64,000 nt of DNA from Plasmodiophora brassicae (GCA_036867785.1 CP145412.1:806001-870000), one strand, 5' to 3'; shown: positions 58,867 through 61,383, numbered from the stretch's first letter. Made by a program: numbers and translations. The notes: a model not told the origin generated them from the letters alone.

Positions 58867-61383
58867 CTAGCAGAGTTTTGAGTCTCCATAAGTCACGACA
58901 AGTTGAAGCGCCCGCTGCAGATTGTCCCTGACTGGTTTGGAATTCGTTTGCGATCCTGCGAAGGCGCGTCAGCACAAATGCCTGAGAACCCGAGTCAGGG
59001 CGGTACCTGGCGCGGAAGCACAGAACTCCACATTGGTGCATGACCCATTTCCGCAGCCTTGTGTCAACTGACTGAAATACCTACAGGCGGTCAGGGGCTG
59101 ACGACGAGGATCGTGGATGGCGGTAAACCTTCGTGCTTGCTTCTGCGCACGAGCTTTGGTGTCGCCGTCGACAGGAGGGTTGACTCGTTTAGAAGTGTCC
59201 TGCTGCGAGCTAGACGATGCCGAATCTGCAGCCGCCGACTTGGCCACCTTGGCAGAGGAATTGTCGCCGAGTTCCCCCCGAGCTCGTCGCCATTCAACAG
59301 ACCCGCTTTCTCTCCCGGGAAGTTGATCGTTCTGACCCGGCAGCAAGATCAGTTGTTGTCCATCCCGGAAGACTCGGGCAGCGCTGCACTGACTGTGCTA
59401 ACCGTAGAGATGCCCAGCAATTGGTCCTTCTCTCGGGACCAGCGCGATCGTACTAGAGAAGCGCGATCAGGGTTCATCCGGCTGAGGCACGCATTCGAGT
59501 ATCGTTCCAGTTCGCCTGCAAGCCAATCCTCTGGGCATTCCCTCCGACGCGAAAGCACGCCGTTCTCAGTGGCATAGTTGGCAGTGTACCGCCGGGTCAC
59601 ATCGCGGACACCTGCAGAACAGCCATGAGCCCAGCAGAATGTCCTACCCACGTATGCCTGATACCATCAACTACAGTATGGAGAATCAGCCCACAAGATG
59701 ATCATTTTCGAATGCACGCCCGACCTGAGAAGCCAATCACGTAGGAGAGCTTCTTGCCCCATCCAGCTTCATCTAAAAAAACATTCAGCAGCCCCAAATG
59801 CATTGGTACATGTCGAAACCCTACACAGCAATGGTGCATCGTAGCGATTCTCGCAGGGGTCGCAATGCACAAACCGCTGTGTCTCATCGCTCCACACCTC
59901 TGATTGGCAACGTGGCACAATCGTCAGCTCATAAGCGCGCGTACCCATTGGTAGACGGGTATCGGACCAGTCCACACGTGGTCAGTCCAATCGACGACGT
60001 AGCGCGCATCGAATTTCAACGCCCGGCAGCATAGTGTGAACGCCTACAGACATGCTGAGCCCCCATTCGTCGTCGGACACAACGCAATCATGGAGCACCT
60101 GAGCCCACTCGCCACATCGGCCTCGTCTGGTTTCCATCAGCTTCCCGCTGTTGTTGTATCGCGGAAACCGATTGACCTGGCCACATGCATTGCACTTGTG
60201 GCTATATCGAATGTTACACAATGGAATGCACAGTTTGACCTCAATCATACAGCTCAACTCTGCCAGCACCAAACCGCAGCTCTTCTTGGTTCGGCTCCGC
60301 CCCACCAATTGTTGTTGTACCTCCTCCACATGAGCTACAAGGTAGGCTGTTGACCCAGCTTCCAACGGATGTCAGTGTAGGAACGAAGTGTACGACGCGT
60401 ACAATGCACCTGAAGAACTCGTGCTTGAACCAGAAAAGCAGCTGAAAGACCAATTCATCTCTACCAGGGAGGGCATCTGGCCCACGCTCTGCCAGACCAC
60501 CGTGAGACCACGAAGCAGGTATAACATGGGGGAAGGTACCTTTTCCTCTGTCAAGCAATTTCTGCAGTGGAATAACTTCAAGAGCTTTGGCCTGGTTCGC
60601 TGGGTTCTCAAAGTCGGGTATATGCTGAAAGTACGACCTGATTTGCATTGCCATCCTCTGCTTTCGATTATCCATCACTGCCACCTCTGCGAGTAACCAT
60701 TGATACAGGCAATCGCTCGATACAAGAAAGTCTGGTGCTCACCTTGACGCTCCTGTAATTGTCCCAAGGCCGTCCGAAGGAAACCAAGAAACGGCTCCAC
60801 CAGCAATTCAGCTTGAGATTGAATACTGCGGAATGACTCAGGGCAACTGACGATGGAGGGACCACACTCACTACCGAGGATGAAACAGGCAGCCCGTTCC
60901 ACACCCGCACACGAAAGGGTCGCTCCCCGACGAAGAAACGTCAGCTGCGTGCCTGACATAGGCAGCTTTACACGCTGCTGCGCACGCCAGACATATTACA
61001 GTGTCGCCAATCCGCAATCCTGGTTGCCGAACCGACGTCGACCCTAGCCAGATCTTTGAGCAGTCGGTTTGCCAAGCTGCACCGAGCAAATCTTGTCAGA
61101 TCCCTATCGCGATGCACCGATGCCCACTGGTCCGCATACGGATTGACTCCAACACCAATGCGGGATCGATCGCGTCGCTGCCATCAGCTGGCTCTGGAGA
61201 CCTCTTCCTGGATAGGTGTAGGATGCCGTCGAACCCATCGACGAACGCCCGATCCAGCCCGGGATCGAGCACCTGCTCCTCGGGTTCGACATCGGTCAGC
61301 GAATAGATCTGCCCGCGCACGACGTCCGCATCGTCGCCAACGTCATCGATGTCGTACCTGGTAGAGGGACCCGCCTCGTTCAT
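58867..61383 (-). CDS. PNG1: Peptide:N-glycanase with C-terminal AZUL domain and probable N-terminal Cys-rich finger
   Basis: [87 protein letters not shown]. The 5' exons upstream of 60684 are inferred. Confidence 0.9.

Follow-up and report, generated by a model that had tools for sequence, protein, structure and literature searches.

The 64,000-nucleotide stretch of Plasmodiophora brassicae DNA analysed here (GCA_036867785.1, CP145412.1:806001-870000; hereafter the window) carries on its minus strand, at 61460..58867, a gene for a peptide:N-glycanase (PNGase) that ends in a complete AZUL domain, the module known from UBE3A/E6AP; this fusion suggests a direct tether of the enzyme to the proteasome. 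The G+C content is 52-61% across the profiled part of the window (54000-64000), which has the character of eukaryotic DNA with very short introns. The gene was placed by tblastn of P0001, a P. brassicae protein of 588 amino acids deposited at NCBI as "unnamed protein product", with the precomputed Pfam labels PF03835, PF16558 and PF01841. It consists of 16 exons and 15 introns, every intron having GT..AG ends on the minus strand, and its coding sequence of 1767 nt closes with a stop codon at 58867-58869. The spliced product of the window is also 588 amino acids long; 10 of its residues depart from P0001, all of them at or before residue 531.

The central part of the protein (residues about 257-467) is a transglutaminase-like PNGase core, encoded by minus-strand exons in 59394..60358, which include a micro-exon. 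P0001 matches the Pfam profiles Transglut_core (PF01841; E 4e-13, 50 bits, cut-off 23) and Rad4 (PF03835; E 3.8e-11, 43.3 bits, cut-off 27). None of the catalytic residues Cys321, His348 and Asp365 varies in 40 aligned sequences; they are separated by 27 and 17 residues, the spacing found in the mouse triad C306, H333, D350 (quoted in PMC3502110). Two CxxC pairs placed before the core are predicted to bind zinc; in the same 40 sequences no variation is seen at C263, C266 and C295, and C298 is conserved in at least 90%. An AlphaFold2 model of P0001, built with a 40-sequence alignment (mean pLDDT 87.2), was compared with known structures by Foldseek, and its core matched 2f4m_A (E 8.1e-27, TMt 0.86) and 3esw_A (E 2.2e-22). 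After the core comes the conserved motif GRxSGSxEWRxARGE, which accounts for a partial match to the PAW domain (PF04721), below cut-off (20.3 vs 31.4 bits) and limited to profile positions 1-26 of 197. The Pfam scan of P0001 matched neither a PUB domain (PF09409) nor a HECT domain (PF00632). The protein is thus, judged by its residues, a catalytically intact cytosolic PNGase; the enzyme named in the initial annotation of this DNA is borne out by the two profiles, the triad and the fold.

The last three exons lead from the core into the AZUL domain. Exon 14 (59129..59331, minus strand) encodes the conserved post-core motif, then a linker of low complexity and the beginning of AZUL helix 1; exon 15 (59007..59080, minus) completes this helix and adds the zinc knuckle, which contains Cys544, Cys549 and Cys555; exon 16 (58867..58955, minus) encodes helix 2, with its ALQL motif, the fourth predicted zinc ligand, Cys588, which is the last residue of the protein, and the stop codon. 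The 48-nt intron that splits helix 1 (59081-59128, minus, GTTTAC..CTGTAG) is in frame and stop-free, while the 51-nt intron within the AZUL loop (58956-59006, minus, GTACCG..TCGCAG) contains an in-frame stop, and the unspliced reading frame ends at 58969. As had been claimed, a single minus-strand stop-to-stop frame (58969..59397, 142 amino acids) holds both the post-core PNGase motif and the AZUL stretch; the adjoining minus-strand frame 58867..58968 encodes the C-terminal end. The product that the initial annotation obtained by removing the two introns is identical, letter for letter, to the C-terminus of P0001.

Four independent measures identify this C-terminus as a complete AZUL, namely the Pfam profile, a profile search of the PDB, the predicted structure and the zinc-ligand columns. 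P0001 scores 41.1 bits against PF16558 (E 2.1e-10, cut-off 23.8) over profile positions 2-59 of 59, and the unspliced exon alone reaches 32.2 bits with the same cut-off (E 1.2e-7); by these scores, the AZUL match in the window is not a product of chance. A profile of eight PNGase C-termini retrieved nine distinct UBE3A sequences from the PDB (E 1.1e-13 to 9.1e-12), and the next matches, designed helical repeats, followed at E 6e-4 or worse. In the AlphaFold2 model, two helices (residues 523-541 and 568-582) come after a disordered linker (504-521, pLDDT below 50), and the C-terminal part is matched by Foldseek to 2KR1 with TMt 0.78 and a root-mean-square deviation of 1.6 Å over 62 columns, at 42% identity. 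A search of the ESM Atlas with residues 505-588 gave no usable feature match, all its structure rows being below TM 0.5. The zinc ligands of the human UBE3A AZUL are given as C21, C26, C31 and C60 in the available text of PMC11795592; C544, C549, C555 and C588 align with these four columns and are the predicted ligands of the P. brassicae domain. In 20 PNGase-linked AZULs the four columns hold Cys in 20, 19, 20 and 20 cases, respectively. The cysteine spacing is C-x4-C-x5-C-x32-C, and the interval between the second and third Cys, with five rather than four residues, is one residue longer than in the human domain, both in Plasmodiophora and in Spongospora. The four-Cys domain announced by the initial annotation is therefore complete, while its spacing departs from the human one.

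Public sequencing runs allowed the gene model to be compared with assembled contigs. Twenty runs from 9 studies contain at least roughly half of the words sampled from the stretch, a word share near 0.55 being the expectation for exon-only sequence; the run kind "RNA?" is a guess of the tool, and no listed run is on record as RNA. One contig each of the runs X1, X2 and X4, which come from three studies, shows 13 joints, all of them CT..AC on the plus strand, and skips both AZUL introns. In the DNA-like run X15, which holds 96% of the sampled words, there are 0 joints. Transcription and splicing are deduced from this difference, since the joints of the RNA-like contigs are absent from the DNA-like run; the gene is real, its AZUL exons are transcribed and spliced, and the two introns proposed initially are genuine. 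The same contigs reveal the micro-exon of the core, 6 nt long (59665-59670, minus strand; two codons in the Val-Asp region), which lies between introns of 54 nt and 53 nt; it is visible in the contigs of the three studies as five extra letters at one joint, which resolves into two introns. The possibility that the fusion is an artefact of annotation or assembly, joining two neighbouring genes, has to be considered here, because the database model is only a prediction and the 48-nt intron is in frame. It is contradicted by single contigs from three studies, which lead from the exons of the core across both AZUL introns as far as the 3' end, and by proteins of transcriptome and metagenome origin that show this layout too, and we regard it as highly improbable.

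Two N-terminal modules, a ubiquitin-like (UBL) domain and a Cys-rich finger, were absent from the initial annotation. Residues 1-63, encoded at 61207..61460 on the minus strand, have a beta-grasp pattern in the AlphaFold2 model (strands 5-9 and 12-16, helix 23-34, strands 41-44 and 58-63), are matched by Foldseek to the UBL domains 1v5t, 2lgd and 1wx8 (TMt 0.50-0.58) and align with the N-terminus of the relative P0005, which is flagged as PF00240. The domain is called UBL-like because Pfam flags no ubiquitin-like domain at the N-terminus of P0001. Ubiquitin-like domains are a classical kind of proteasome-docking module. Between this domain and the core, the exon 60875..61076 (minus) encodes a Cys-rich, probably zinc-binding module (residues 87-152), with seven Cys invariant in 8 sequences. 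No Pfam family matched it even at E 10, and its sequence matches in the PDB were at chance level (E 0.12 or worse); in AlphaFold2 it reached a pLDDT of 53.4 when folded alone and of 72-94 within the full model. It may resemble the UBR-type fingers. The relative P0005 (876 amino acids) also contains a beta-propeller of the NHL/SGL type (PF01436, PF08450) between the PNGase core and AZUL, which may substitute for the PAW domain that binds glycans in the animal enzymes.

The 5' end of the gene may depart from the database model. This model includes a 65-nt intron (61358-61422, minus strand, GTGAGT..CAG) that interrupts the ubiquitin-like domain and is needed for the 588-residue product; it is spliced out in none of the three RNA-like contigs (X1, X2, X4). 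If the intron is retained, the annotated ATG at 61460 opens only 13 codons and an in-frame ATG is available at 61383; a start at this position would yield a protein that lacks the first strand of the N-terminal domain. Such a change would affect the N-terminus and leave the AZUL end untouched.

Two neighbouring genes lie upstream in the window, both on the plus strand. The region 55731-56911 encodes a phage-type single-subunit RNA polymerase (PF00940, E 4.1e-95); the region 57290-58729 encodes a RhoGEF with a PH domain (PF00621, PF00169) and stands tail to tail with the PNGase gene.

The fusion is not private to P. brassicae. Domain labels were considered for the best 120 of 1604 PNGase relatives, to which the following counts of relatives refer. 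PF16558 is found on 7 rows, P0001 included. Our own AZUL profile raised this to 9 of 120 by recovering P0002 and P0003, the latter from Spongospora subterranea; of the organisms that have the fusion, only P. brassicae and S. subterranea are named. Other rows carry UBL (PF00240), PUL (PF08324), legume lectin or jacalin domains; in P0013, P0014, P0017 and P0050 the PUL domain is C-terminal, at the place equivalent to that of AZUL. None of the 7 PNGases flagged with PF16558 has PUB (PF09409) or PUL (PF08324), yet these domains are present on many other rows; AZUL therefore appears to sit in the tether slot. The fusion can be taken as a PNGase that carries another kind of ubiquitin-system tether.

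When 1.84 billion cluster representatives were searched with a profile, 555 proteins came up at E <=0.001, of which the best 150 were taken; the new ones among these, with nine already known, make up 157 classified AZUL-bearing sequences. In 20 of them either the PNGase core or its motif at the C-terminus is present; 11 belong to the HECT or UBE3A-like type, 2 are Vms1-like, one is the EF-hand protein P0125, and 123, mostly short fragments, are unclassified. There are thus at least 20 sequences, mostly cluster representatives, in which a PNGase ends in AZUL, as Vms1-like proteins do too. When 46 matches of at least 200 amino acids were scanned with Pfam, AZUL was found in 46, the start of PAW in 9, Rad4 in 6, Transglut_core in 4, HECT in 4 (P0158, P0169, P0216, P0238), the VLRF1 release-factor domain in 2, and jacalin, ILEI and EF-hand in one each. 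The two Vms1/ANKZF1-like proteins, P0182 and P0212, combine the VLRF1 release-factor domain, ankyrin repeats and a RanBP-type zinc finger with a C-terminal AZUL; the EF-hand protein P0125 also matched the Vms1 query, and this match was taken as spurious. Further AZUL stretches were seen on P0135, with a jacalin-like lectin (1036 amino acids), on P0175, with ILEI, on P0125, with EF-hands, and on P0167, a protein of 1617 amino acids with two of them. The occurrence of the domain on PNGase, HECT, Vms1-like and lectin-like proteins indicates that AZUL behaves as a mobile, promiscuous module in protists, outside animals. A search for longer homologues with the AZUL alignment returned 8 proteins, all of them parents of query rows, and no new taxa. 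In a FastTree phylogeny of 122 PNGase cores, P0002 and P0006 fall into a single clade with Plasmodiophora and Spongospora (support 0.93), and the 11 AZUL-bearing tips do not form one clade, the smallest split containing all of them having 41 tips. Neither a single origin of the fusion nor several can be read from this tree, because its deep branches are short and some of the neighbours may be truncated.

The arrangement of the P. brassicae enzyme lends itself to a mechanistic proposal. The core is flanked by two modules of the ubiquitin-proteasome system, the N-terminal UBL-like domain, followed by the Cys-rich finger, and the C-terminal AZUL on its disordered tether. As in UBE3A, AZUL would work as a helix-loop-helix docking module, whose exposed hydrophobic face could hold a helical segment of some protein associated with the proteasome; an Rpn10-type tail able to bind AZUL would be the likeliest such partner. 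The UBL-like domain could meanwhile engage ubiquitin or UBL receptors, and the two modules together may permit deglycosylation of substrates for endoplasmic-reticulum-associated degradation (ERAD) at the proteasome, without PUB or PUL tethers to p97. The presence of AZUL on HECT ligases and Vms1-like release factors as well, enzymes that handle substrates just before degradation, is consistent with docking. A tether of this kind, with UBL and AZUL acting together and an Rpn10-type tail as receptor, is put forward tentatively, its chances being in our estimate somewhat short of even.

The contact positions of AZUL bear on this proposal. According to the available text of PMC7064531, human AZUL binds the RAZUL region of Rpn10 at 12 nM and forms with it a four-helix bundle; the contacts are K25, R26, A29, I33 and Y37 in helix 1 and A67, A69, residue 70, L73 and Y76 in helix 2. 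The 20 PNGase-linked AZULs were compared at these positions with 11 AZULs of the HECT type. Of the 20 sequences of the PNGase class, 15 have a basic residue at position 26, 17 have Leu or Ile at position 32, 18 have Phe, Ile or Val at position 33, and 19 have Leu or Ile at position 73; since the exposed contact positions stay hydrophobic or basic, the helix-binding face seems to be kept in this class. This has consequences for the view that AZUL serves structure, regulation or localisation, acting for example in intramolecular packing or nuclear targeting, with no docking to the degradation machinery. Such a role would suit a small predicted zinc module on a flexible linker, and AZUL is also associated with EF-hand, ILEI and jacalin domains, where a link to the proteasome is not evident; however, the conserved exposed hydrophobic face and the repeated fusion to enzymes of the ubiquitin system point to a shared partner, and a role without docking is considered rather unlikely.

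Several observations weigh against an Rpn10-type tail as the partner. Position 33 is Phe in 13/20 sequences of the PNGase class and Ile in 11/11 of the HECT class; position 70 is Lys in 12/20 and Ala, Val or Ile in 9/11, respectively; position 29 is Thr, Leu or Val in 15/20 and Ala in 8/11. The P. brassicae protein itself has Gln32 and Ala33 where its relatives have Leu and Phe, so that the hydrophobic face would be weakened in this AZUL. These residues, together with the class differences, fit a co-evolved or a different partner as well as they fit Rpn10. Moreover, fungi are described in the available text of PMC7064531 as being without both RAZUL and E6AP, and a RAZUL can therefore not be assumed in the P. 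brassicae lineage. The Rad23-binding helices of mouse PNGase may well be retained here, in which case AZUL would add to the Rad23 route and not replace it. Finally, the presence of AZUL in the place of PUL makes p97 a live rival partner.

With p97 as partner, AZUL would tether the enzyme to Cdc48/p97 or to one of its adaptors, replacing the PUB (in animals) or PUL modules that bind the p97 tail. In favour are the position of AZUL at the C-terminus, where the four PUL-bearing protist PNGases have their p97-binding domain, and the lack of PUB and PUL alongside it; the class-specific changes at the RAZUL-contact positions also fit a different partner. Yeast and human Vms1/ANKZF1 have a p97-interacting motif at the end where P0182 and P0212 carry AZUL. 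A contact between AZUL and p97 was, however, not found in the AZUL literature examined, whose available text gives as partners the RAZUL of Rpn10 and, with weak binding, the UBA domain of ubiquilin; we judge this tether unlikely. A further alternative follows from the UBA interaction: AZUL could bind the UBA domain of a shuttle factor of the Rad23 or ubiquilin/Dsk2 type, and the enzyme would ride on shuttles instead of sitting on the proteasome. Human AZUL binds the UBQLN1 UBA, competing with the UBL for the same UBA face (available text of bioRxiv 10.1101/2022.09.29.510132), PNGases are known clients of Rad23 (PMC6222260, PMC2791212, in the text available), and the P. brassicae enzyme has both a UBL-like domain and AZUL. 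The affinity of the human interaction, about 460 uM, is nevertheless very weak, and transport by shuttles is held to be distinctly unlikely.

Proteasome docking through AZUL can also be extended beyond PNGase. AZUL might be an old mobile adaptor, linking PNGase, Vms1-type peptidyl-tRNA hydrolase, HECT ligase and lectin-like proteins to one shared receptor in the degradation machinery, for which an Rpn10-type tail would be the best guess; animals would have kept only the UBE3A copy, and clubroot-type protists would deglycosylate ERAD substrates on the proteasome by a double tether of UBL and AZUL. This wider picture is doubtful as a whole. If the AZULs do share a receptor, the RAZUL site of Rpn10 would be a general landing site for enzymes that make substrates ready to be degraded; if true, this would be relevant to the way in which UBE3A, the gene of Angelman syndrome, acquired its place on the proteasome, and it would provide PNGase with a third independent route to the degradation machinery, beside Rad23 and the p97-binding PUB and PUL modules.

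As to novelty, the initial annotation had raised the question whether the architecture was already annotated. In terms of labels it is: PF16558 stands together with PF01841 on P0001 and on six other rows, and since these Pfam labels are public, the architecture is already machine-annotated. In terms of discussion it is not, as literature searches pairing AZUL with PNGase, N-glycanase or NGLY1 found no paper that describes the fusion, judged for the PNGase pairing by the titles and opening lines of the abstracts listed, and the main text of PMC6222260, a survey of PNGase architecture, contains no mention of AZUL, UBE3A or E6AP. AZUL is stated to be unique to UBE3A in the available text of PMC7064531 and PMC11795592; as far as the domain matches collected here go, this does not hold across eukaryotes. 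The fusion is a domain-shuffling variant in little-studied protists, with labels already in databases, and the surprise is accordingly a moderate one.

The P. brassicae enzyme shares with yeast Png1 and mouse/human NGLY1 (PDB 1X3W, 2F4M) the transglutaminase-like core, the Cys-His-Asp triad and the zinc site, and its core is 45% identical to that of mouse PNGase. Unlike animal NGLY1, it lacks the PUB and PAW domains and has instead the N-terminal UBL-like domain, the Cys-rich finger and the C-terminal AZUL. This last domain resembles the AZUL of UBE3A/E6AP (PF16558; PDB 2KR1, 6U19) in its helix-loop-helix organisation, its four Cys and the QLTxGCG and ALxL...LC signatures; conversely, it is found at the C-terminus of a glycanase and not at the N-terminus of a HECT ligase, and it differs by the additional residue in the interval from the second Cys to the third, by a longer segment from helix 2 to the last Cys and by the class differences at positions 29, 33 and 70. 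Protist PNGases have been reported with a UBQ-like N-terminus and with a lectin (PMC3502110). The P. brassicae protein thus resembles other protist PNGases, such as Dictyostelium DdPNGase and Naegleria PNGase, in joining a conserved core to lineage-specific ubiquitin-system or accessory modules; differently from them, its module is an AZUL, whose documented partners are only the RAZUL of Rpn10 and the UBA of ubiquilin, and not p97.

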